DNA of 64,000 nt from Candidatus Limnocylindrales bacterium. Lineage in GTDB: Bacteria; Chloroflexota; Limnocylindria; Limnocylindrales; CSP1-4. Location: NCBI GenBank assembly GCA_049967415.1, contig JBMFSS010000007.1, forward strand, positions 6,629-70,628. The letters run 5' to 3'. The notes below the pieces were generated by a model. The model was not told where the DNA came from and made no database searches. It saw only the letters and a list, made by a program, of their open reading frames with translations. The position numbers were made by a program, and so were the translations under genes. This document shows, in pieces, positions 6,587 through 31,995 of this stretch; position 1 is the first letter of the stretch; each line of letters opens with the position of its first letter.

Positions 6587-6959
6587 GACACGGACGCGGG
6601 CCACCCGGCCTCGAGACGCGCGGGCTGGCGGCCGCCGACCCGCGCGTCCGGCCCGTCGGCCGGAGTGCCTGTCACTCGACTCGTTGCCGCGCGGCCCGCG
6701 TCCTCTGCTGCGGTGGAGCCCACCGCCCCTGAAGTGCGAGGGCAGCGACGCCATGCGGCCCGGTGGTCGACGCCTCGGGTATGTTCCGGACCCCTGGATC
6801 GGCGGCCATGTCGATCTTCGGCGCCGGGGCTCGCTCCCGCCATGGGCCTTGGGTACCGCCGCGGGGGCACGAAGGAGCGTGGCGGCCGTGCACCACGTCA
6901 CGCGGAAGGCCACCTGCAGGCGGTTCGCGTCCGCCAGGCAGCGTGCTACAGTCGCCGCG

Positions 6960-8639
6960 ATGGACGAGGGCTGGCGCGCCGCCCGGGAGCGCTGGGAGCG
7001 CGAGCGACTCGATCCCGAGATCCGGCGCGTCCCCGAGCGCGGGCCGCGGTTCCGCACCCTCGGCGAGATCCCGGTGCGCGGCCTGTACACGCCGCTGGAC
7101 CTGGAGGGGCGTGACCCGCTGGAGACCGTGGGGTTCCCCGGGTGGCCACCGTTCACCCGAGGTATCCACGCCAGCGGCTACCGCGGTCGGCTCTGGACGA
7201 TGCGCATGTTCGCCGGCTTTGGCTCGGCGGAAGACACCAACGCCCGCTTCCATGAGCTGCTGGCCGCCGGGCAGACCGGGCTCTCGATCGCCTATGACAT
7301 GCCCACGCTGTACGGCTACGACACCGACGATCCGCAGGCGGAAGGCGAGTTCGGCACCTGCGGCGTGGCGGTCAGCTCGCTGGCGGACATGGAGATTCTG
7401 CTGGAGGGGATCCCGCTCGACCGGATCTCCACCTCCATGACCATCAACGCGCCGGCCGCGCCGATCTGGGCCATGTACATCGCGGCGGCCGAGAAGCGTG
7501 GCTATCCGCGGGGCAGCCTCGAAGGTACGCTCCAGAACGACATCCTGAAGGAGTACATCGCCCAGAAGGAGTTCCTCTTCCCCATCGAGCCCTCCCTGCG
7601 ACTGGTCACCGACACGATCGAGTTCGGCACCCGGGAGCTGCCCCGCTGGAACACCGTTTCGATCAGCGGCTACCACATCCGGGAGGCGGGGGCCACGGCG
7701 GTCCAGGAGCTCGCCTTCACCATCGCCGACGGGATCACGTACGTCGAGCGGGCGCTCGAGCGGGGCTTGCAGGTGGACGAGTTCGCGCCCCGCCTCTCGT
7801 TCTTCTTCAACGCCCATTCCGACTTCTTCGAAGAGATTGCCAAGTACCGTGCCGCTCGCCGCATCTGGTATCGGCTGGTGACCGAACGCTGGCACGCCGC
7901 CCACGAACGATCCGCCTGGCTGCGCTTCCACGCCCAGACGGCAGGCGCCTCGCTCACCGCCCAGCAGCCACTCAACAACCTGACCCGGGTCGCGGTCCAG
8001 GCGCTGTCGGCGGTCCTCGGGGGCGCGCAGTCACTGCACACCGATGCGTACGACGAGGCCTGGGCCGTGCCGTCGGCGGAGGCCGCGCTGCTGGCGCTCC
8101 GCCAGCAGCAGGTGCTGGCGGCGGAGACGGGCGCGACCAGCACCGTGGACCCGCTGGGGGGCTCCTGGTACGTCGAGTGGCTGACCGACGAGGTGGAACG
8201 CCAGGCCTTGCGCTACCTCGGCGAGATCGATGCCTTGGGCGGGATGCCATCGGCCATCGATGCGGGCTTCCCCCAGCGTGAGATCGCGGATGCCGCATAT
8301 CGGTACCAGCGGGCCCTCGACGCGGGGGAGCGGGAGGTGGTCGGTGTCAACGCGCATGCCGACCCGGACGAGCAACTGGCGATCCCACTGCTGGAGGTGA
8401 GCGAGGAGAGCCGGCGGCGCCATCTCGCGCGCCTCGAACGGGTCCGCCGGACCCGCGATCCCGTCGCGGTGGCGGCCGCGCTGGATCACCTGCGCGACAT
8501 GGCCGCCCGTCCCGGCTCGAGCGCGACCAACGTGATGCCGGCCCTGCTCGAGTGCGCCACCGCCTACGCGACCCTGGGCGAGATGTGCGGCGTGCTGCGC
8601 ACATGCTTTGGCGAGTATCGCGAGGGCGTCGCGGTCTGA
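6960..8639 (+). CDS. B12-dependent acyl-CoA mutase large (catalytic TIM-barrel) subunit, lacking a fused B12-binding domain; specificity residues look isobutyryl-CoA-mutase-like
   Basis: [18 protein letters not shown]...[30 protein letters not shown]...SIAYDMPT...[17 protein letters not shown]...[13 protein letters not shown]...: methylmalonyl-CoA mutase family substrate-binding domain. The ATG at 6960 was chosen over the 222-aa N-terminal extension in the ORF track, which is low-complexity and overlaps the reading context of the upstream gene. No C-terminal DxHxxG B12 domain. Confidence 0.9.
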
Positions 8640-8690: not shown

Positions 8691-9416
8691 TCACATCCCG
8701 GGATCGGGCGGCAGCCTCCGCAGGAGTTGTTCCGCGAACCGCTGGGCCGACTGCAGCGACCCACCGGCCCAGTCCACCGGGAGACGCGCCAAATCAGGAC
8801 CCAGGGCATCGAACGCGCGGCCGCCCAGCATGATGGCCGGCGGATTGGGCATCGCCCGCAGGGCGGCCACTGCGGCACGCACCGTCTCGAAGCGGTCGGC
8901 GAGGGCGGCGCTGAGCGCCACCAGCCGGGCCTGCTCCCGCGCGACATAGCGGACCAGGTCGTCCACCGGCACACTCTGGCCGAGGTACGCGACCGACCAG
9001 CCGCTCTCGCGCAGGACGTGCTCGAGCAGGATCAGCCCGATGGCATGCTCCTCGCCTTCGGCCGCGGCGAGTACCGCCAGGGGGCCGATCCGGTCGCTCA
9101 CGGCAACCTCCGGCGCCAGGTCCTCCAGCGCCCGCGCCAGCGCCTGGCTCGCCCGGTGCTCCTCGCTGATGGTCCAGCGGCCGCCGCGCCACCCGTCGCC
9201 GACCTCGCGCATCGCGTCGCGGACCAGGGAGTCGTACACCACGGCGCGGGAGGGCCCCTGCAGCGCGACCCGGAGCGCCCAGGTGACGAGGTCCTGGTCG
9301 CCCTCCACCAGCAGGCCGGCCAGCACCTCAGGCGTCACCACGTCGGGCGCGACCGTGCCGGCCAGTCGTGGATCAACCGGCGGCAGGGACGGGACCGACT
9401 TGTCTTCGTCACTCAC
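8691..9416 (-). CDS. stand-alone cobalamin (B12)-binding domain protein: helical cap plus Rossmann B12-binding domain, no DNA-binding domain
   Basis: Cap region has a W-x9-E-H motif (GWRGGRWTISEEHRAS). Rossmann region has the His-on B12 ligand motif ExHxxG (EGEEHAIGLILL) followed by GWSVAYLGQSVPVDDLV. Convergent with the mutase gene. Confidence 0.7.
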   Translation of the reverse strand: MSDEDKSVPSLPPVDPRLAGTVAPDVVTPEVLAGLLVEGDQDLVTWALRVALQGPSRAVVYDSLVRDAMREVGDGWRGGRWTISEEHRASQALARALEDLAPEVAVSDRIGPLAVLAAAEGEEHAIGLILLEHVLRESGWSVAYLGQSVPVDDLVRYVAREQARLVALSAALADRFETVRAAVAALRAMPNPPAIMLGGRAFDALGPDLARLPVDWAGGSLQSAQRFAEQLLRRLPPDPGM

Positions 9417-9488: not shown

Positions 9489-9824
9489 ATGGGCGCGCCG
9501 GGAGAACTGGGTACCAGGATCGAGCTGGCGGCCTCGTCAATCGAGGGGGTCGAGCGCCGGGCCGAGGTCGGTGGCTTCCGCTACGCGCTGGCTGGTGTCG
9601 ACTTCGCTCTGGTATCCGGCGCCCGTTGCGCGTTTCGGCTCCGGCCCGAGCTGGCCGAGGCGGCACTGGGCACGCCCGACGTCCGGCCGAGCGCCGTCGG
9701 CGAGGGGTGGGTCGAGCTGGCGCCTGCCGAATTCGACCGGTTTGCCCTGGACCGGGCCACGAGCTGGTTCGCGGCTGCCGCTCGTTATGCGGCGGAGACC
9801 GGGCCGGGGCGCAGGCTCCACTGA
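9489..9824 (+). CDS. small conserved protein, TfoX/Sxy N-terminal-domain-like
   Basis: 111-aa ORF ...FRYALAGVDFALVSGARCAFRLRPELAEAALGTPDVRPSAVGEGWVELAP... matches the TfoX-N pattern (FGGxaf..nG.mf..v.d..l.lR...e....al....rp....G..mkGWv.v). Assignment is from memory of the family pattern. Confidence 0.4.
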   Translation: MGAPGELGTRIELAASSIEGVERRAEVGGFRYALAGVDFALVSGARCAFRLRPELAEAALGTPDVRPSAVGEGWVELAPAEFDRFALDRATSWFAAAARYAAETGPGRRLH

Positions 9825-9827
9825 ATG

Positions 9828-11087
9828 TCATGAAGACGGGCCTCGCTGGTGGCAACGTTGGGTTGTCAAAGCAACCAGCACCAGGAGGCCCACGTGATGT
9901 TGTACGCCGGATTGGACCTGTCGCGCCAGAGGGTGGATGTGCACGTGCTCGATGCGTCGGGTCGGACCGTGGAGGTGACCGCCGTGCACCCCGATACCGA
10001 CGGCCTTCGGTCATTGGTCGATCGGATCGGTCGATACGGTGAGCCGGTGGAGGCGGCCATCGAGTCGATGAACGGCGCGCGCTTCGTGCACGACCAGCTC
10101 GAGTTCGCCGGCTGGGATGTGGCGATCGCCGATGCCCTGCGGGCCAAGGGCTTGGCGCCATTGGTGGCCAAGACGGACAAGATCGATGCCTGGGTGCTCG
10201 CCGAGCTTGCTCGCCGGGAGCTGGTGCCCGCCATCTGGCTGCCCGACCCCGAGGTGCGCGCGGAACGGGAGCGGGCCCGCTTCCGGCTGCACCTGGTGCG
10301 CCACCGGACCGCCCTGAAGAACCGGACCCACGCGATCCTCATCGCCTTCGGCTACCCGGTCCCGGTGTCCGATCTCTTCGGGACCGCCGGACGCGAACTG
10401 CTCGGTCGGCTCGCGATCCCCGAGCCCTGGGCCACCACCCTCGCCACGGGCCTGCGCTTCGTCGACGAGCTGGACGCCGAGATCGATCGCTGCGAGGCCG
10501 AGCTGCGGCGCATGGGGGCCGACCACCCCTACGTCCCCTTGCTCATGACGGTCCCCGGGGTTGCCTGGGTGCTGGGCTACACCATCGCCGCCGAGATCGG
10601 CGACATCGGGCGCTTCGCCTCACCCAAGAAGCTCACCGGGTACAGCGGCCTCTGCCCGATCGTGCGCCAGTCGGGCGGCCGCGATGACCGGGGACCCCTC
10701 GCCAAGAACGGCCCCAAGTACCTGCGCTGGGCGTTGATCGAGGCCGCCACCCACGCCGCTCGCCATCCCGCCTACCGGGACCACTACGAGCGCACCGCCC
10801 GCCGCCTCGGTCGCCAGCGCGGCTCCAAGGTCGCCCGGGTCGAGCTTGCCCGCGAGCTCGCCGGCGCGATCTGGCACATGCTCACCAAGAACGAACCGTT
10901 CCGTTCCGGCAGGCCCCCCGTGGGCCCTCTGGTCGCGTGACGACCCTGTACTGAGATGGGCCGCCGGAGCATCCGATCCAACCTGATCCTCCCTCAAGGA
11001 GGCGATAAAGAGATGAGCGCAGCTCCACCCAACGCAGCGATGCGCAACCAGAGTCGTCAGCACTTGACGGCCGGCCCGTCTTCATAA
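9828..11087 (+). mobile_element. IS110-family insertion sequence (about 1.26 kb) with 15-bp sub-terminal inverted repeats
   Basis: Left end TCATGAAGACGGGCC (9828-9842) and right end GGCCCGTCTTCATAA (11073-11087) are reverse complements with one mismatch. They bracket a single IS110-type transposase gene. The right end shows a local GC drop (ataaagag). Confidence 0.7.
9896..10940 (+). CDS. IS110 family transposase
   Basis: AGGAGG ribosome-binding site then ATG. MLYAGLDLSRQRVDVHVLD (DEDD N-terminal domain) ... KTDKIDAWVLAELAR ... C-terminal LMTVPGVAWVLGYTIAAEIGDIGRF...KLTGYSGLCPIVRQSGG (IS116/IS110/IS902-family C-terminal domain). Confidence 0.9.
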
Positions 11088-11163
11088 AGAGGGCGCGCCG
11101 CAGGCAGTGCCGGGGCACCGGAGCGGGCACCGGCGCCCCGCCGGGCGCGGCAGGGGAGGAAGC

Positions 11164-11655
11164 ATGTACGTTGATGCGCTCTCGTTCCTGGAAGACGAAC
11201 GCGAAGCGTGGGCTCCGTTCGAGGCGCTTGGCGCGCTCTCCGACGCGGACCTGGAGCGCACCACGGCCGAAGACGGACCGGCGCATGGCTGGACCGGTCG
11301 CGACCTGGTGGCGCACCTCGTCGCCTGGCAGGAGCTGGCGCAGCAGTCCGCACGTGAGCTCGCGCTCGGGGACTCCAGCCCCACGATTGAGCGGATCGAG
11401 GCCGAACGGGCGTCCGGTGGCGATGATGTGCGGAGCGCGGCCATCCAGGCTGAGTGGCGGAGCCTGCCCCTGGACGAGGTACGGCACCGGCTGGCCACGG
11501 TGGCCGGCGAACTGCGCGGGTACCTGACGGTGGTGCCGGAGACGCGCTGGGTGAAGAACCCGAAGCGTCTCGCGTTCTTCCTCGAGTGCACGCTGGACCA
11601 TTACCCCGAGCACCAGCCGGAGCTGGAGGCGATCCTGGCGGCCGCCCGCGGCTGA
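11164..11655 (+). CDS. DinB/ClbS-like four-helix-bundle family protein
   Basis: GGGGAGGA ribosome-binding site then ATG. MYVDALSFLEDEREAWAPFEAL...GWTGRDLVAHLVAWQE... C-terminal DHYPEHQPELEAIL is typical of the DinB/DUF1706 (ClbS/DfsB) bundle. Confidence 0.55.
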   Translation: MYVDALSFLEDEREAWAPFEALGALSDADLERTTAEDGPAHGWTGRDLVAHLVAWQELAQQSARELALGDSSPTIERIEAERASGGDDVRSAAIQAEWRSLPLDEVRHRLATVAGELRGYLTVVPETRWVKNPKRLAFFLECTLDHYPEHQPELEAILAAARG

Positions 11656-26048: not shown

Positions 26049-26459
26049 ATGACCGAACGCCCCATCAAGGTCCTCATCGCGAAGCCCGGGCTCGACGGCC
26101 ACGACCGGGGCGCGAAAGTGCTGGCGCGCGGGCTGCGGGACGAAGGATTCGAGGTGGTCTACACCGGGCTTCGGCAGACGCCCGAGATGATCGCATCGGC
26201 CGCGCTCCAGGAGGACGTGGACGTGGTGGGACTGTCGATCCTCTCCGGAGCCCACATGACGCTGCTCCCCCGGGTCTGCCGGGCGCTGCGCGAGGAGGGA
26301 CTTGGCGACGTGCTGGTGACGGCGGGCGGGATCATCCCGGACGACGATATCCCCGCCCTGCGAGAGGCTGGCGTGGACCGTGTGTTCGGTCCCGGCACCA
26401 CCATCGGCGAGGTCGCGGAGTACCTGCGCGCCAACGTCCGTCCGCGTGACGGGGCCTGA
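26049..26459 (+). CDS. acyl-CoA mutase B12-binding small subunit
   Basis: [40 protein letters not shown]: DxHxxG His-on cobalamin motif and Rossmann fold. About 135 aa; an alternative ATG at 26013 adds 12 aa. Confidence 0.85.
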
Positions 26460-26562
26460 CGTCCGCGTGACCCGGCCTGACGGCGCGCGGGACCGGCCCT
26501 CCCTGAACCCCCCGCCGCTGCCCGCCGGCCGGCCCGGGCAGGGCGCCCAGGAGGTCACCGTG

Positions 26563-27648
26563 ATGTCCCGCGGCGTGGCACTGGCGGAGCGCGCGCGGTC
26601 GGGCGATCGGCGAAGCCTGGCGCGCCTGCTGACCGAGATCGAGAACCGGACGCGCGTTGCCGAGACCGCGCTGCGCTTCCTCTACCCGGCCGCCGGACAG
26701 GCGCAGCTGGTCGGGATCACGGGGGCGCCGGGTGCCGGCAAGTCGACCCTGGTGGCGGCCCTGGTGCGTGCCGTTCGCGCGTCGGGACGCGCGGCGGCCG
26801 TTCTCGCCATCGACCCATCCAGCCCCATCACCGGCGGGGCCATCCTGGGCGACCGGATCCGCATGCAGGAGCATGCCGGTGACCCGAACGTCTTCATCCG
26901 CTCCATGGCCTCTCGCGGGCATGCCGGCGGTCTTGCCGCGGCCGCGGCGGATGCCGCCGCGGCGCTCGACGCGGCCGGCTTCGACATGGTCTTCCTGGAG
27001 ACCGTGGGGGCCGGGCAGAGCGAGGTGGAGGTGGCCTCCATTGCGGACACGACTCTGGTGGTGGAAGCGCCTGAGATGGGCGACGAAGTGCAGGCGATCA
27101 AAGCGGGCCTGCTCGAAGTGGCCGACATCGTGGTGGTCACCAAGGGCGACCGGCCCGGGGCCCAGCGGACGGCTGCCCAGCTGCGGGCGATGCTGACGAT
27201 CGGGGCGGATGGCGACGCGACGGCGCGGGCACGTGCAGCCGCGTCCGGCCGGCGGCAGCCCAAGCGGCCGCAGGTGCTGCTGGTCACCGCGCCCACCGGA
27301 GACGGGATTCCGGAGCTCGTGGCGGCCCTCGAGCGGCGGGCCCCCGAGCGTGACCTGGGGGCATTCGAGATGGCACGGCTGGCGCGGGCCGCGGTGCAGC
27401 TCGACACCGTGGTGGCCGAGCGGCTGCACGCGCAGCTGCACGCCCCGGCCCGGGCCGCGGCGTTCCAGGAGACCGTGCATGCGATCGCTCATCACGAGCT
27501 GGATCCCTACGCGGCGGCGGATCGGGTGCTCTCGTGGCTGGAACGGGAGCCGGGCGCCCAGGAAGGGCGGGAGCCGAACCGCGTGGCGGGCGAGCGGCGG
27601 CGGCCCGTGCCCGGGGGCAACCGGCGGGAAAGCACCACGGAGGGCTGA
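26563..27648 (+). CDS. meaB: methylmalonyl-CoA mutase-associated GTPase (MeaB/ArgK family)
   Basis: GGAGG ribosome-binding site then ATG. P-loop GITGAPGAGKST, LETVGAGQSE (switch), VTKGD (NKxD-like). The track ORF starts upstream inside the B12-subunit gene. Confidence 0.9.
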   Translation: MSRGVALAERARSGDRRSLARLLTEIENRTRVAETALRFLYPAAGQAQLVGITGAPGAGKSTLVAALVRAVRASGRAAAVLAIDPSSPITGGAILGDRIRMQEHAGDPNVFIRSMASRGHAGGLAAAAADAAAALDAAGFDMVFLETVGAGQSEVEVASIADTTLVVEAPEMGDEVQAIKAGLLEVADIVVVTKGDRPGAQRTAAQLRAMLTIGADGDATARARAAASGRRQPKRPQVLLVTAPTGDGIPELVAALERRAPERDLGAFEMARLARAAVQLDTVVAERLHAQLHAPARAAAFQETVHAIAHHELDPYAAADRVLSWLEREPGAQEGREPNRVAGERRRPVPGGNRRESTTEG

Positions 27649-27683: not shown

Positions 27684-28559
27684 ATGAGCATCAGGACGGT
27701 CCTTGTCTGCGGCGCGGGGCTGATGGGGCACGGCATCGCCCAGGTTTGCGCGGTGGCCGGTCGTGACGTCTTCGTCTACGAGCCCGATCGATCCAGGTCG
27801 GAGGCCGGGCTGGCCCGCATCGCCGGCAACCTCGAGCGCGCGGTCCAGAAGGAGCGGATGACTGCGCAGGATCGCCAGGCGGCGCTGGGGCGGATCCGCA
27901 TCGCCGACGCTCTGGGCGGAGCGGTGGCCCAGTGCGACCTGGTGATCGAGGCGGTGTTCGAGGACGAGGCGGTGAAGCGCTCCCTGTTCGCGGAGCTGGA
28001 TCAGCGGGCGCCCGAGCATACCGTCCTGGCCTCCAACACCAGCTCCATCAGCATCACCCGGTTGGCCTCGGCGGTCCGGCCACCGCGGCGGGCGTCGTTC
28101 GTGGGCATGCACTTCTTCAGTCCAGTCCCGGTCATGCCGCTGATCGAACTGGTGCGCGGCGCGGAGACCTCGGACCGCGCCGAGGCCGAGGTGCGGGCAC
28201 TGGCGGCGGACCTGGGCAAGCAGGTGATCGTCAGCCGGGACCGCCCGGGGTTCGTCGTGAACCGGGTCCTGATGCCCTACCTGGTGGAAGCCATGCGCGC
28301 CTACGAGGAGGGGCTCGGGACCCTGGAGGACATTGACGCGGGCGTTCGCCTGGGCCTGAACCACCCCATGGGACCGCTGGAGCTTGCCGACTTCATCGGG
28401 CTCGACGTGTGCCTGCACGTGATGGAAGTCCTGTACGAGGGCTTCCATGAGCCGAAGTTCGCGCCCCCGCCGATCCTGCGCCAGCTGGTGGACGCGGGCT
28501 ACCTGGGCCAGAAGTCGGGGCGCGGCTTTTACACGTATCCGCGACCGGCCAGGGTCTAG
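27684..28559 (+). CDS. hbd: 3-hydroxybutyryl-CoA dehydrogenase
   Basis: MSIRTVLVCGAGLMGHGIAQV NAD-binding, ...ASNTSSISIT...GFVVNRVLMPYLVEAMRAYEEG...HPMGPLELADFIGLDV. Confidence 0.9.
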   Translation: MSIRTVLVCGAGLMGHGIAQVCAVAGRDVFVYEPDRSRSEAGLARIAGNLERAVQKERMTAQDRQAALGRIRIADALGGAVAQCDLVIEAVFEDEAVKRSLFAELDQRAPEHTVLASNTSSISITRLASAVRPPRRASFVGMHFFSPVPVMPLIELVRGAETSDRAEAEVRALAADLGKQVIVSRDRPGFVVNRVLMPYLVEAMRAYEEGLGTLEDIDAGVRLGLNHPMGPLELADFIGLDVCLHVMEVLYEGFHEPKFAPPPILRQLVDAGYLGQKSGRGFYTYPRPARV

Positions 28560-28574: not shown

Positions 28575-29747
28575 GTGGCGGACGGCGCGCTCAGCGGAGA
28601 GGAGCGGCTGCTCCGGGACACGGTGCGCGACTTCGCGGACCGGGAGCTGGCGCCTGGCGCCGCCGACCGCGACGAGCAGGAGCACTATGAGCGGCGGCTC
28701 TTTGACGCGCTGGCCGGGCTGGGGCTGACGGGCGCTCCTTTTCCCGCGTCGATCGGCGGCGGCGGCCTGGCCTATCGCGCCTGGGTCCTGGTCATGGAAG
28801 AGCTGGGTGCGGTGGACATGGCGCTGGCCGTGTCGCTCAGCGTCCACGTTCTCTCGCAGGCCCCCGTGGTCCGCTGGGGCACGCCAGAGCAGCAGTCGCG
28901 CTGGTTGGCGCCCATGCTGCGCGGCGAGCGGATGGGCGCGTTTGCGCTGACCGAACCGGGCGCCGGATCCGACGCGGCCGCGATCCGGCTGCGGGCGAGC
29001 CGGATCGGGCTAGCCGACGCGCCGGAGGCGTATCGCCTGGACGGCACCAAGATCTGGATCAGCAACGCGCCGGAGGCTGAGCACTACCTGGTTTTTGCGA
29101 CCCTCGACCCGGATGCCGGACCTCGGGCGATCACGGCCTTCCTGGTGGAGAAGGGCACGCCGGGGTTCGAGTTCGGGCGCAAGGAGCGGAAGCTCGGGCT
29201 CCGGGCGAACCCGGCCTCCGAGCTGGTCTTTCGGGCCGCCCGGGTGCCGGTGGAGAACCGCCTCGGCCGCGAGGGGGACGGGTACCGGATCGCACTGTCC
29301 GCGCTCGGGGAGGGGCGAATCTCGATCGCGGCCGCGTGCACTGGGCTCGCGCGTGCGGCCCTGGAGTCGGCCGCCCGATACTGTGCCGAGCGGCAGGCCT
29401 TCGGCGGGCCACTCACGGGGCAGGAAGGGGTCCGGTTCATGCTCGCTGAGATGCAGCAGCAGGTGGCCGCCGCCCGGGCCCTCACGCGCGCGGCAGCCGA
29501 GGCCCGGGACCGCGGCGAGCCGATCGCCGAGGCCTCCTCGCTTGCCAAATGGACCGCGTCCGACGCCGCGATGCGCGTGGCCAGCGACGCGGTGCAGCTT
29601 TTTGGTGCGGCCGGGTACAGCCGCGAGAACCCGGTGGAGCGCTACCTGCGGGACGCGAAGGGCGCGCAGATCTACGAGGGCACCAACCAGGTGCACCGGC
29701 TGATCGTTGCCCAGCAGCTGCTCCGGGGACTGGGGCTGCCGGGGTGA
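28575..29747 (+). CDS. acyl-CoA dehydrogenase (short/branched-chain type)
   Basis: ACAD motifs: ALTEPGAGSD, GTKIWISNA, C-terminal QLFGAAGYSRENPVERYLRDAKGAQIYEGTNQV. Confidence 0.9.
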   Translation: MADGALSGEERLLRDTVRDFADRELAPGAADRDEQEHYERRLFDALAGLGLTGAPFPASIGGGGLAYRAWVLVMEELGAVDMALAVSLSVHVLSQAPVVRWGTPEQQSRWLAPMLRGERMGAFALTEPGAGSDAAAIRLRASRIGLADAPEAYRLDGTKIWISNAPEAEHYLVFATLDPDAGPRAITAFLVEKGTPGFEFGRKERKLGLRANPASELVFRAARVPVENRLGREGDGYRIALSALGEGRISIAAACTGLARAALESAARYCAERQAFGGPLTGQEGVRFMLAEMQQQVAAARALTRAAAEARDRGEPIAEASSLAKWTASDAAMRVASDAVQLFGAAGYSRENPVERYLRDAKGAQIYEGTNQVHRLIVAQQLLRGLGLPG

Positions 29748-29814: not shown

Positions 29815-31068
29815 ATGGAAAGCCAGCCGCTTGCGCCGGATGGGCCCTCCGGCCGCGTCTACCTCGTCTCGGCCATGCGCACGCCGATCGGGAAGTTCGC
29901 CGGCAGTCTCGCCGACGTCCCCGCCACGGTCCTTGGCGGCATCGCGATCCGGGCTGCCGTGGAGCGGGCGGGCGTGCCCCCCGAGGCGGTCGAGGAGGTG
30001 CTGATGGGGCAGGTGCTGCAGGCGGGGGCGGGGCAGGCCCCCGCGCGCCAGGCGGCCCTGAACGGCGGGCTGCCGGTGGGTGCCAGCGCCACGACCATCA
30101 ACCGGGTGTGTGGGTCCGGTCTGAAGTCGATCATGCTCGCCGCGGCCGAGATCCGCGCGGGGGACGCCGAGGTCGTCGTGGCCGGTGGCATGGAGAGCAT
30201 GAACCAGGGACCGTATCTCCTCCGGAAGGCGCGCTTCGGCTACCGGCTGGGCGGCGGCGAGCTGGTGGATGCGACCGTTTCGGACGGCCTGTGGTGCTCC
30301 ATCGAGGGGTGCCACATGGGGACCCTGGCCGAGCGGGTGGCCGGCCGTTCCGGGGTCAGCCGGGCGGACCAGGACCGGTTCGCGCTGGAGAGCCACCGGA
30401 AGGCGATCGCTGCCATCGATGCGGGCCGGTTCGCGGACGAGATCGTGCCGGTCTCGATCCGGCGCGGCCGCGAGGAGACGCTCTTCGCCACCGACGAAGG
30501 CCCTCGTCGGGATACCACGCCCGAAGCGCTGGCCCGGCTCCGGCCCGCGTTCGAGTTGCCGACCGGCGAGGATGCGCCGCCGGGCGGGGTGGGGACGGTC
30601 ACCGCCGGCAACGCGCCCGGAATCACCGATGGCGCGGCGGCCACGGTGGTGGCCAGCGAGCGGGCGGTGGAGCGGTACGGGCTGGCGCCGCTCGCGCGGA
30701 TCCTGGGGTACGCGGAGGCCGACGTGGAGCCGAAGTGGCTCTTCCTGGCCCCGATTGCCGGCGTGCGCCGCCTCCTGGAGCGCGTGCGGCTGCCGCTGGA
30801 CGCGTTCGACCTTCTGGAGATCAACGAGGCGTTTGCCGCGCAGGTGCTGGCGGACGGGCGCGAGCTGGGGTTCGACTGGTCGAGGGTCAACGTGAACGGT
30901 GGGGCGATCGCGCTGGGGCATCCGATCGGAGCGAGCGGGGCGCGGATAGTGGCCACGCTGCTGCACGAACTGGCGCGCCGCGAAGGGCGTTACGGGCTGG
31001 CGACGCTCTGCCTGGGAGGCGGCGGCTCGGTGGCCATGGCGTTCGAGCGAACGTTCGAGCGGAACTGA
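29815..31068 (+). CDS. acetyl-CoA C-acetyltransferase (thiolase II)
   Basis: NRVCGSGLKSI (active Cys), GNAPGITDGAAA, NVNGGAIALGHPIGASGARI, CLGGGGSVAMAFE. Confidence 0.9.
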   Translation: MESQPLAPDGPSGRVYLVSAMRTPIGKFAGSLADVPATVLGGIAIRAAVERAGVPPEAVEEVLMGQVLQAGAGQAPARQAALNGGLPVGASATTINRVCGSGLKSIMLAAAEIRAGDAEVVVAGGMESMNQGPYLLRKARFGYRLGGGELVDATVSDGLWCSIEGCHMGTLAERVAGRSGVSRADQDRFALESHRKAIAAIDAGRFADEIVPVSIRRGREETLFATDEGPRRDTTPEALARLRPAFELPTGEDAPPGGVGTVTAGNAPGITDGAAATVVASERAVERYGLAPLARILGYAEADVEPKWLFLAPIAGVRRLLERVRLPLDAFDLLEINEAFAAQVLADGRELGFDWSRVNVNGGAIALGHPIGASGARIVATLLHELARREGRYGLATLCLGGGGSVAMAFERTFERN

Positions 31069-31131
31069 GCGGCGCCGATCCGGCCGATCGACGCCGGTAT
31101 CATGCGTCGATACTTCGTGCGAGAGGGGACC

Positions 31132-31995
31132 ATGCGCCGGGTGGCGATCATCACTGACAGCGGGTCGGATCTCGATCCTGCCGTGGCTGCCGCCGCCGGG
31201 ATCGCGCTGGTCCCGCTCCTGGCGATCTTTGGCGACCAGGAGTTCCGGGCCGGGGTGGATCTCTCGGCGCGCGAGTTCTGGGAGCGCTTCTCCGCCCCTG
31301 GGGCTCCGTTTCCGCGCACGTCCGCGGCGAGCGCCGGGACCTTCCAGGCTGCCTTCGAGGACGCGTTCCGGGACGGCGCCCGGGCAGTGGTCTGCGTGAC
31401 GCTGGCCGGCACGCTTTCGGCCACCCTCAGCAGCGCGGAGATGGCGCGGGACGCGCTCCCCAATCGCGAGATCCACATCGTCAACAGCTGGAGCGCGAGC
31501 ATGGTCGAGGGGATCCTGGCGCAGCTGGGCGCCGAGATGGCCGACCGGGGCGTCTCCGCCGCGGAGATCGCGGCCACACTCGCAGGACGGACCCGCGACC
31601 TGCAGCTGCTCTACGTGATGGACACGCTCGAGCACCTGGTGCGCGGGGGTCGCATCGGCCGGGGCCGCGCCCTGGTGGGCGCCATGCTGTCGACGAAGCC
31701 GATCATGACCATCAACGAGGGGATCGTTGACATCGTGGACCGGCCGCGAACCCGGACGCGTGCGAGGCAGCGGCTGGTCGAGCTGGTCACTGCCCGTCCG
31801 GTGGAGCGCCTGGCGGTCCTGTACACGCCCCGGACGGAGGATGTGGACGGGCTCACAGGTCAGCTGGCGGCAGCCGCGCGGATCCCGCCAGCGGCCGTCA
31901 GCCGGCAGTTCATCGGCCCGACGATCGGCCCGCATGTGGGCCCCGGCGCGTATGGCGTGGCGGTTCTCTGGCGGGCCGAGGCGCCCGCGCAGTAG
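31132..31995 (+). CDS. DegV family fatty-acid-binding protein
   Basis: MRRVAIITDSGSDL...; DegV EDD fold. Confidence 0.8.
   Translation: MRRVAIITDSGSDLDPAVAAAAGIALVPLLAIFGDQEFRAGVDLSAREFWERFSAPGAPFPRTSAASAGTFQAAFEDAFRDGARAVVCVTLAGTLSATLSSAEMARDALPNREIHIVNSWSASMVEGILAQLGAEMADRGVSAAEIAATLAGRTRDLQLLYVMDTLEHLVRGGRIGRGRALVGAMLSTKPIMTINEGIVDIVDRPRTRTRARQRLVELVTARPVERLAVLYTPRTEDVDGLTGQLAAAARIPPAAVSRQFIGPTIGPHVGPGAYGVAVLWRAEAPAQ

Follow-up and report, generated by a model that had tools for sequence, protein, structure and literature searches.

A predicted two-subunit isobutyryl-CoA mutase of the IcmA type in a Limnocylindria genome

The 64,000-nucleotide stretch of DNA analysed here (the window) comes from a genome of the Chloroflexota lineage Limnocylindria, which are abundant in fresh water and soil and are known mostly from metagenomes. 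At positions 6960–8639 on its forward strand lies a gene with an ATG start and a TGA stop that encodes the 559-residue large (catalytic) subunit of an acyl-CoA mutase, and the question that it raises is which acyl-CoA this enzyme rearranges. The more than 120 orthologues in Limnocylindria carry generic names only, “methylmalonyl-CoA mutase family protein” or “acyl-CoA mutase large subunit family protein”. A first-pass annotation of the locus had proposed an isobutyryl-CoA mutase (ICM) rather than a methylmalonyl-CoA mutase (MCM), and had warned that a blanket MCM label would probably be wrong. The specificity pocket and the phylogeny described below are indeed not those of MCM; the public names, however, contain no outright MCM call. 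We conclude that the protein is probably the large subunit of an IcmA-type ICM, a two-subunit enzyme that depends on adenosylcobalamin. This is a known kind of enzyme, and the finding refines its annotation without adding new chemistry.

The protein consists of the MM_CoA_mutase barrel alone: Pfam PF01642 spans residues 33–551 (696.6 bits), and there is no fused B12-binding or G-protein domain. It matches TIGR00641 at 709 bits. Its score against the MCM equivalog model NF006944 (591 bits) is under the cut-off of 876, and that against the IcmF model NF045497 (316 bits) is far under the cut-off of 1500. A search of the PDB gave HcmA, the 2-hydroxyisobutyryl-CoA mutase (HCM) large subunit, as the best match (4r3u_A; 556 bits, about 49% identity), with MCM chains at about 445–454 bits; HcmA ranks first because the PDB holds no stand-alone IcmA structure. 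An IS110 transposase gene is located 1.2 kb downstream of the large-subunit gene.

Alignment with phmmer against PDB chains places Phe84 (codon at 7209–7211, forward strand), which is part of the motif MRMFAGFG (residues 81–88), at residue 89 of P. shermanii MCM (5req, a Y89F mutant), at the Tyr of RQYAGF in the human and M. tuberculosis MCMs, and at Ile90 of HcmA. Gln202 (7563–7565, forward strand), contained in the segment [14 protein letters not shown], corresponds to the Arg of MVRNTY in all the MCMs (Arg207) and to the Gln of MAQKEY in HcmA. Alignments made with MAFFT gave identical columns for both residues. A third specificity residue, Ala111 (7290–7292, forward strand), occupies the column of HcmA Asp117, where Ala is also found in MCM and IcmF. 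The three columns read Phe/Ala/Gln in our protein and in IcmF, Tyr/Ala/Arg in MCM, and Ile/Asp/Gln in HcmA. In IcmF (4xc6_A) the Phe and Gln are at SEQRES positions 618 and 762, which after subtraction of a 20-residue tag become Phe598 and Gln742. The first-pass annotation had mapped the two positions correctly: the computed alignments against MCM, HcmA and IcmF put Phe and Gln in just these columns, with no Tyr/Arg. The residues of the radical chemistry, at MCM Gln197, Tyr243, His244, Glu247, Gln330 and Glu370, are conserved.

Phe and Gln at these positions are reportedly the determinants of ICM, according to work by Ratnatilleke in 1999, Cracan in 2010 and Jost in 2015. The premise rests on this literature and on our alignments to the structures of IcmF and MCM; a full-text literature search for the names of the specificity residues returned unrelated papers only. 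The IcmA of S. cinnamonensis, which we take to be 566 residues long with Phe80 and Gln198, was represented by 566-residue Streptomyces orthologues (GTDB loci L023, L026, L042, L076 and L095), located by scanning GTDB genomes with a degenerate DNA pattern. These proteins have Phe80 and Gln198 in the columns of MCM Tyr89 and Arg207, with the same 118-residue spacing as in our protein, and the first-shell residues at MCM positions 89, 116, 139, 207, 332 and 333 are Phe, Ala, Cys, Gln, Ala and Gly in both. Both positions are thus ICM-like, as had been suggested. The Streptomyces proteins differ from ours in belonging to another phylum, with 53–54% identity, and in reading RQF rather than RMF, with Met before the Phe in our sequence. 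IcmF of Cupriavidus metallidurans (4xc6) has RMFAG as in our protein, but it is a single chain of about 1090 residues that combines B12 domain, G-protein and barrel, against three genes at two loci here, and its barrel is only about 37% identical.

The Streptomyces IcmA/IcmB system (EC 5.4.99.13) combines a stand-alone large subunit of about 560 residues with a small subunit of about 136 residues encoded elsewhere, and the window has the same arrangement. A small B12-binding subunit of the IcmB type, 136 residues long, is encoded at 26049–26459 on the forward strand (TIGR00640, 176.6 bits), and this is the only open reading frame of its type in the 64 kb. It has the DxHxxG (here DGHDRG, with His18), SxL and GG motifs, matches 2yxb and the HcmB chain 4r3u_C in the PDB, and is 53–72% identical to small subunits encoded beside Phe/Gln large subunits in other phyla. 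We presume that it partners the large subunit. The first-pass annotation had pointed to a separate subunit of about 135 residues; such a subunit exists, although it has 136 residues and its gene is not adjacent. Because the gene is 17.4 kb downstream of that for the large subunit, we infer rather than observe the pairing of the two proteins. The split organisation had also been read as support for ICM. This argument is weak, because there are split enzymes with Tyr/Arg, and the architecture is consequently not diagnostic.

The small-subunit gene belongs to a single row on the forward strand. It is followed by genes for a MeaB-type G-protein chaperone (26560–27648, start codon approximate; TIGR00750, 307.6 bits against a cut-off of 240.75), a 3-hydroxybutyryl-CoA dehydrogenase (27684–28559; NF004474/NF005875, 331–363 bits), a short-chain acyl-CoA dehydrogenase (28575–29747; its best NCBIfam models are acyl-CoA dehydrogenases, all under their equivalog cut-offs) and an acetyl-CoA C-acetyltransferase, or thiolase (29815–31068; TIGR01930, 438.7 bits, above cut-off). 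The genes around the small subunit are a butyryl-CoA β-oxidation set. No epimerase, carboxyltransferase, propionyl-CoA carboxylase or second large subunit was found in the 64-kb window. We propose that the large subunit would pair with the unlinked small subunit and interconvert isobutyryl-CoA and n-butyryl-CoA by a radical 1,2-shift, with MeaB loading or protecting the cofactor. Phe84 and Gln202, in place of the carboxylate-holding Tyr and Arg of MCM, would suit an uncharged alkyl group. The dehydrogenases and the thiolase may then convert butyryl-CoA to two acetyl-CoA, giving a possible route for the carbon of valine or isobutyrate, or, in reverse, a supply of isobutyryl-CoA.

The wider family was compared by profiles and trees. 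Our protein scores 820 bits against a profile of Phe/Gln proteins, and 807 bits when the signature residues are masked, compared to 707–728 bits for profiles of split Tyr/Arg enzymes; the HCM profile gives 671 bits and that of canonical MCM 566. A narrow actinomycete IcmA-like profile gives 672 bits, under the split Tyr/Arg profiles, which indicates that our protein is no particularly close relative of the characterised enzyme from Streptomyces. Among its named homologues, all the closest ones carry Phe/Ala/Gln, over an identity range of 93% to about 55%. Deep nodes were unresolved in an earlier neighbor-joining tree of 133 unnamed representatives. A neighbor-joining tree with named sequences separates our protein from the canonical fused MCMs with 100% bootstrap support, and groups all 82 stand-alone Phe/Ala/Gln proteins, including ours and those of Streptomyces, with weak support (bootstrap 18%).

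About 100 proteins, spread over many phyla, have the Phe/Ala/Gln pocket. A pattern scan of GTDB suggests that stand-alone Phe/Gln large subunits are present in Actinomycetota, Chloroflexota, Deinococcota, Gemmatimonadota, Acidobacteriota and haloarchaea; the member names of ten representative clusters were uninformative. In 16 of 104 Phe-type GTDB loci the large subunit has beside it a gene homologous to at least one of three in the window, those for 3-hydroxybutyryl-CoA dehydrogenase, acyl-CoA dehydrogenase and thiolase, and the same is seen on a haloarchaeal plasmid (L009). In Ideonella the gene for IcmF (L006) likewise precedes genes for 3-hydroxybutyryl-CoA dehydrogenase and acyl-CoA dehydrogenase. 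In Anaerolineae and Thermus the Phe/Gln large subunit is followed directly by an orthologous small subunit. Using as queries the epimerase half of a Brevibacillus fusion protein and a Brevibacillus carboxyltransferase, we found an epimerase-like gene near five of the 104 loci, in other phyla and including an Anaerolineales relative (L029), and a carboxyltransferase near five. The gene context is therefore not uniform across the group, and does not provide a clean negative control.

The same Phe/Gln pocket might instead serve mainly another uncharged acyl-CoA, such as isovaleryl-CoA/pivalyl-CoA, valeryl-CoA or 2-methylbutyryl-CoA, a reading that we regard as unlikely. IcmF, with the same two residues, slowly turns over isovaleryl-CoA/pivalyl-CoA too. 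Second-shell residues of our protein differ from those of both IcmF and the Streptomyces proteins, with Tyr for Phe at MCM position 117, Asp for Asn at 366, Val for Leu at 374, and Ala for Val or Arg at 334; His is found at position 75, where the proteins under comparison vary. More than 40 residue combinations occur at the specificity columns across the family, implying that specificity evolves readily, and the carboxyltransferases beside some Phe/Gln loci could fit leucine/isovalerate metabolism. Against this, our protein and the Streptomyces IcmA orthologues have the same first-shell residues, and the cluster that holds the partner gene in the window is a C4 set (3-hydroxybutyryl-CoA dehydrogenase and thiolase) with no carboxylase. 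A pivalyl-CoA mutase pocket was considered and rejected: Xaut_5043, presumably the characterised enzyme, has Leu at 89 and Asn at 207, a much altered pocket, neither residue being found in ours. Ethylmalonyl-CoA mutase is expected from its substrate to have a carboxylate-binding Arg at 207, and its absence here would argue indirectly against that activity.

That the enzyme is a genuine MCM, as its family name suggests, is highly improbable. It matches the family models PF01642 and TIGR00641, and NF006944 at a sub-threshold score; it shares the fold and the radical machinery of P. shermanii MutB, human MMUT and M. tuberculosis MutB, together with MeaB as a chaperone encoded in the window; and in one 64%-identical Anaerolineales relative an epimerase-like gene and the large-subunit gene are about 2 kb apart. 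However, it lacks the Tyr89/Arg207 pair and the fused B12 domain, is 40–45% identical to these enzymes, and is separated from them in the tree, and the window yielded neither epimerase nor propionyl-CoA carboxylase. Split Tyr/Arg enzymes are found in Brevibacillus, Acetoanaerobium and on Streptomyces plasmids; that of Brevibacillus adjoins a small-subunit/epimerase fusion (annotated “mce”) and a carboxyltransferase. This split enzyme, with its clear MCM context, is a separate type. The Streptomyces plasmid homologues H5, H86, H88 and H99 had been candidates for IcmA and were rejected as all being of the Tyr/Arg type.

There is very little to recommend an HCM. HcmA/HcmB of Aquincola tertiaricarbonis (4r3u) has the same split architecture and leads the PDB matches, its large subunit shares with ours the Gln at the Arg207 column and an AQKE motif, and a 3-hydroxybutyryl-CoA dehydrogenase gene adjoins MeaB in our window. 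However, our protein has Phe for Ile90 and Ala for Asp117, and the HCM profile scores well below the Phe/Gln profile. Ile or Val together with Asp is retained in HcmA, Xaut_5021, Sinorhizobium H38 and P0134; Xaut_5021 and H38 are encoded beside a CoA ligase gene, and no gene for a 2-hydroxyisobutyryl-CoA ligase was found near ours. The proposal of an ICM-type rather than MCM-type enzyme is borne out in the pocket, which has neither the Asp of HCM nor the Leu/Asn of Xaut_5043, and in the profiles, among which Phe/Gln is best even when masked.

That the large subunit is an orphan or in decay, lacking a functional partner, as the absence of an adjoining small-subunit gene and the nearby transposase might suggest, is scarcely credible, given an intact reading frame with codon-position GC typical of real genes, conserved catalytic residues, more than 120 orthologues of equal length at 72–93% identity, and the fact that the two subunits are, as a rule, unlinked in the sampled Streptomyces loci and are also unlinked in a relative (L003).

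In place of a small subunit, the gene directly adjoining that of the putative IcmA encodes a CarH-like B12-binding protein (8691–9416, reverse strand, convergent with the large subunit), composed of B12-binding_2 and B12-binding domains with no DNA-binding domain. This neighbourhood is conserved in the clade. The protein might respond to light or B12 as a regulator, deliver or hold the cofactor, or even be an alternative B12-carrying partner. In this reading the mutase gene of Limnocylindria is always flanked by a stand-alone AdoCbl-binding protein of this sort, functionally tied to the mutase, with the small subunit encoded elsewhere; we consider such a tie very unlikely. Scanned for Rfam families and tRNAs, the window gave no matches, so no cobalamin riboswitch precedes the mutase gene. 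If the association were real, the role of the CarH-like protein would represent an undescribed way to control an acyl-CoA mutase.

The right substrate assignment alters metabolic reconstructions. An MCM label implies a step from propionate to succinate or in the 3-hydroxypropionate cycle, and an ICM supplies neither; it joins the valine/isobutyrate and butyrate pools. Since stand-alone Phe/Gln large subunits seem to be present in many phyla, a specific rule for annotation that draws on two or three alignment columns would be useful.

The large subunit of the acyl-CoA mutase is encoded by an intact open reading frame at 6960–8639 on the forward strand (ATG to TGA, 559 amino acids), with G+C distributed over the codon positions as in real genes, in a window of 72% G+C. 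The protein consists of one MM_CoA_mutase barrel (PF01642, 696.6 bits; TIGR00641, 709 bits), and falls below the curated cut-offs of both the methylmalonyl-CoA mutase (MCM) equivalog NF006944 (591 bits, cut-off 876) and the model for IcmF, the fused isobutyryl-CoA mutase (316 bits, cut-off 1500). It has more than 120 orthologues at 72–93% identity, which, wherever the source names an organism, come from Chloroflexota ‘Candidatus Limnocylindria/Limnocylindrales’ or CSP1-4. Their labels are generic only: ‘methylmalonyl-CoA mutase family protein’, ‘acyl-CoA mutase large subunit family protein’ or ‘methylmalonyl-CoA mutase N-terminal domain/subunit’.

Both motifs quoted in the first-pass annotation are present in this protein, and its mapping of the substrate-specificity residues proved correct by computed alignment (phmmer to PDB chains, and MAFFT). 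In the phmmer alignments Phe84 (in RMFAGF) lies opposite residue 89 of P. shermanii MCM (chain 5req, which is the Y89F mutant), the Tyr of RQYAGF in human and M. tuberculosis MCM, and Ile90 of the 2-hydroxyisobutyryl-CoA mutase (HCM) subunit HcmA; at Gln202 (in IAQKEF) the three MCMs all show the Arg of MVRNTY, and HcmA a Gln; and Ala111 corresponds to HcmA Asp117 and to Ala in MCM. The signatures at the MCM Tyr89, HcmA Asp117 and MCM Arg207 columns are Y/A/R for MCM, I(V)/D/Q for HCM, and F/A/Q for both IcmF and the query. The residues at MCM positions Gln197, Tyr243, His244, Glu247, Gln330 and Glu370 are all kept. At MCM position 75, a column variable among the compared proteins, the query has His (H70, codon 7149–7151); its Ala330 (7947–7949) is Val in the 93%-identical orthologue.

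The suggestion that both specificity positions are isobutyryl-CoA mutase-like is borne out by two references. An Ideonella plasmid protein, named IcmF by PGAP, is near-identical to the solved fused enzyme 4xc6_A, whose Phe598/Gln742 (F618/Q762 in SEQRES, after a 20-residue tag) align with query Phe84/Gln202 in MAFFT. Five Streptomyces loci, among those listed by the GTDB pattern scan described below, encode 566-residue proteins that start MDADAI and carry Phe80 and Gln198, matching the published length and residue numbers of S. cinnamonensis IcmA (566 residues, Phe80/Gln198). These are 53–54% identical to the query, and the pocket at MCM positions 89/116/139/207/332/333 is F/A/C/Q/A/G in both. 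At MCM positions 117/366/374 the query has Tyr/Asp/Val (Y112, 7293–7295; D362, 8043–8045; V370, 8067–8069), against Phe/Asn/Leu or Thr in the Streptomyces IcmA orthologues and in IcmF; D362 is common to the Thermus/Deinococcus Phe/Gln proteins. Streptomyces plasmid homologues were ruled out as an IcmA reference, being Tyr/Arg types. Xaut_5043 of Xanthobacter autotrophicus, presumably a pivalyl-CoA mutase (PCM), has Leu/Asn at the specificity positions and a reshaped pocket, unlike the query. HcmA is the top structural match of the query because there is no stand-alone IcmA structure in the PDB.

All named homologues that are between 93% and about 55% identical to the query are F/A/Q; beyond Limnocylindria the closest are other Chloroflexota (64%), Armatimonadota (63%) and Thermus/Deinococcus (about 60%). 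In a tree built by neighbour joining from 110 sequences and 514 columns, with 200 bootstraps, the Limnocylindria clade has 100% bootstrap and the Chloroflexota clade 68–76%. All 82 stand-alone F/A/Q proteins cluster together, at a bootstrap of only 18%, with HCM, IcmF and PCM branching next to them, and the split that sets the canonical fused MCMs apart, with the query outside them, has 100%. Against profile HMMs built without Chloroflexota sequences, the query scored 820 bits for the Phe/Gln group, 707–728 for split Tyr/Arg groups, 671 for HCM and 566 for canonical MCM, a ranking unchanged after masking the signature residues; a narrow actinomycete IcmA profile gave 672 bits. Together with the low equivalog score, these results uphold the suspicion that an MCM label would probably be wrong. 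As judged from sequence, tree split and profile scores indicate that the query clearly falls outside MCM sensu stricto and is best placed in the broad Phe/Gln group, a placement that does not narrow to a sister of Streptomyces IcmA.

This group appears widespread. Of the 120 loci listed when GTDB genomes were searched with a degenerate DNA pattern encoding R-[QLKM]-F-A-G-F-G, about 105 encode mutase large subunits; among these loci, most ORFs that are long enough show AQKE[WFY], or a motif close to it (AQH.., AQNEY), exactly 118 residues past the Phe. Phe/Gln large subunits were seen in Actinomycetota, Chloroflexota, Thermus/Deinococcus, Gemmatimonadota, Acidobacteriota, Nitrospira and haloarchaea. 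One Phe-type subgroup, with AQHAW or AQHSW after the Gln (loci L043, L046, L068, L094 and L126 from Gemmatimonadota; L020 and L100), may have a different substrate specificity; in L046, L094 and L126, genes for a small subunit, a carboxyltransferase and the G-protein chaperone MeaB come after that for the large subunit. Among the best 150 family representatives at 50% identity (P0121–P0270), 72 are Y/A/R, 36 are F/A/Q, and the remainder show more than 40 other combinations (besides I/D/Q, for example V/V/G, I/V/C, L/T/C and Q/D/H), implying many acyl-CoA-mutase-like proteins without an assigned substrate.

A separate B12-binding subunit of about 135 residues, as claimed in the first-pass annotation, does exist (26049–26459, forward strand, 136 residues, DGHDRG, TIGR00640 176.6 bits), but its place is 17.4 kb downstream of the large-subunit gene rather than beside it. 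It is the sole mutase-type B12-binding ORF in the window, and heads a same-strand row encoding MeaB (TIGR00750, above cut-off), 3-hydroxybutyryl-CoA dehydrogenase, acyl-CoA dehydrogenase, acetyl-CoA acetyltransferase and, directly 3′ of this thiolase, a DegV/FakB-like fatty-acid-binding protein (31102–31995, forward strand), which could point to a connection with the handling of (branched-chain) fatty acids. Except for crotonase, the row is the set needed to convert butyryl-CoA to acetyl-CoA, and the Ideonella IcmF is likewise followed by the two dehydrogenases. The 64-kb window contains no epimerase, carboxyltransferase or second large subunit, and no riboswitch or tRNA was found in it; its remaining genes are ordinary chromosomal ones.

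In the comparison loci (8 kb each, gene not centred), a small subunit 53–72% identical to that of the window lies beside the Phe/Gln large subunit in 33 of the 104 Phe-type loci listed, directly after it in Thermus and in the order large, small, MeaB in the Anaerolineae locus L048. Homologues of the window dehydrogenases or thiolase adjoin it in 16 of the 104 and in the haloarchaeal plasmid locus L009. No nearby small subunit was found in the 8-kb Streptomyces stretches, so unlinked subunits are not unusual. Epimerase-like and carboxyltransferase genes each occur near five of the 104, including one Anaerolineales relative, which qualifies the use of context. Nor is the split organisation diagnostic of isobutyryl-CoA mutase, because split Tyr/Arg enzymes exist: in Brevibacillus, a small-subunit/methylmalonyl-CoA-epimerase fusion and a carboxyltransferase are encoded after such a large subunit. 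On the B. laterosporus plasmid (locus L017) the fusion, annotated ‘methylmalonyl-CoA epimerase’, comes directly after the large subunit at 6631–7473 of that locus; its first ~135 residues correspond to a mutase small B12-binding subunit (DGHDRG) and the other half to the epimerase.

A reverse-strand gene (8691–9416), convergent with that of the mutase, encodes a stand-alone CarH-like protein of 241 residues (B12-binding_2 and B12-binding domains, E-x-H-x-x-G) without a DNA-binding domain; in the PDB it matches ‘Cobalamin-binding protein’ (8j2x/8j2w) and CarH best. Limnocylindria loci L001, L003 and L110 keep this gene together with the mutase gene and a DnaJ-domain gene, a trio absent in the roughly 100 other Phe/Gln loci listed, the CarH-like neighbour being seen only in Limnocylindria; this conserved neighbour could be of greater interest than the mutase itself. 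An IS110-family transposase (9849–10940, forward strand) lies between ORFs of 111 (9489–9824) and 182 (11107–11655) residues, whose counterparts are 74 bp apart in L001 (mutase 93% identical); about 1.2 kb has thus been inserted in the window.

We consider it probable that the query, the 26049–26459 small subunit and MeaB form an IcmA/IcmB-type isobutyryl-CoA mutase system, a reading in which pairing, substrate and direction are inferred from the residues and genes observed. The large-subunit barrel would bind substrate and CoA, the small subunit would carry His18-ligated AdoCbl, and MeaB would aid cofactor loading. After Co–C homolysis, a hydrogen would be abstracted and the thioester carbon would undergo a 1,2-shift, interconverting isobutyryl-CoA and n-butyryl-CoA, with Phe84/Gln202, in place of the carboxylate-binding Tyr/Arg, shaping a pocket for methyl rather than carboxylate. 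The main alternative, a related uncharged substrate, is made plausible by second-shell differences at MCM positions 117, 334, 366 and 374, and we regard it as unlikely. As a probable isobutyryl-CoA mutase, the query represents a known kind of enzyme in a poorly studied phylum, and the gain is a useful annotation rule rather than new biology.
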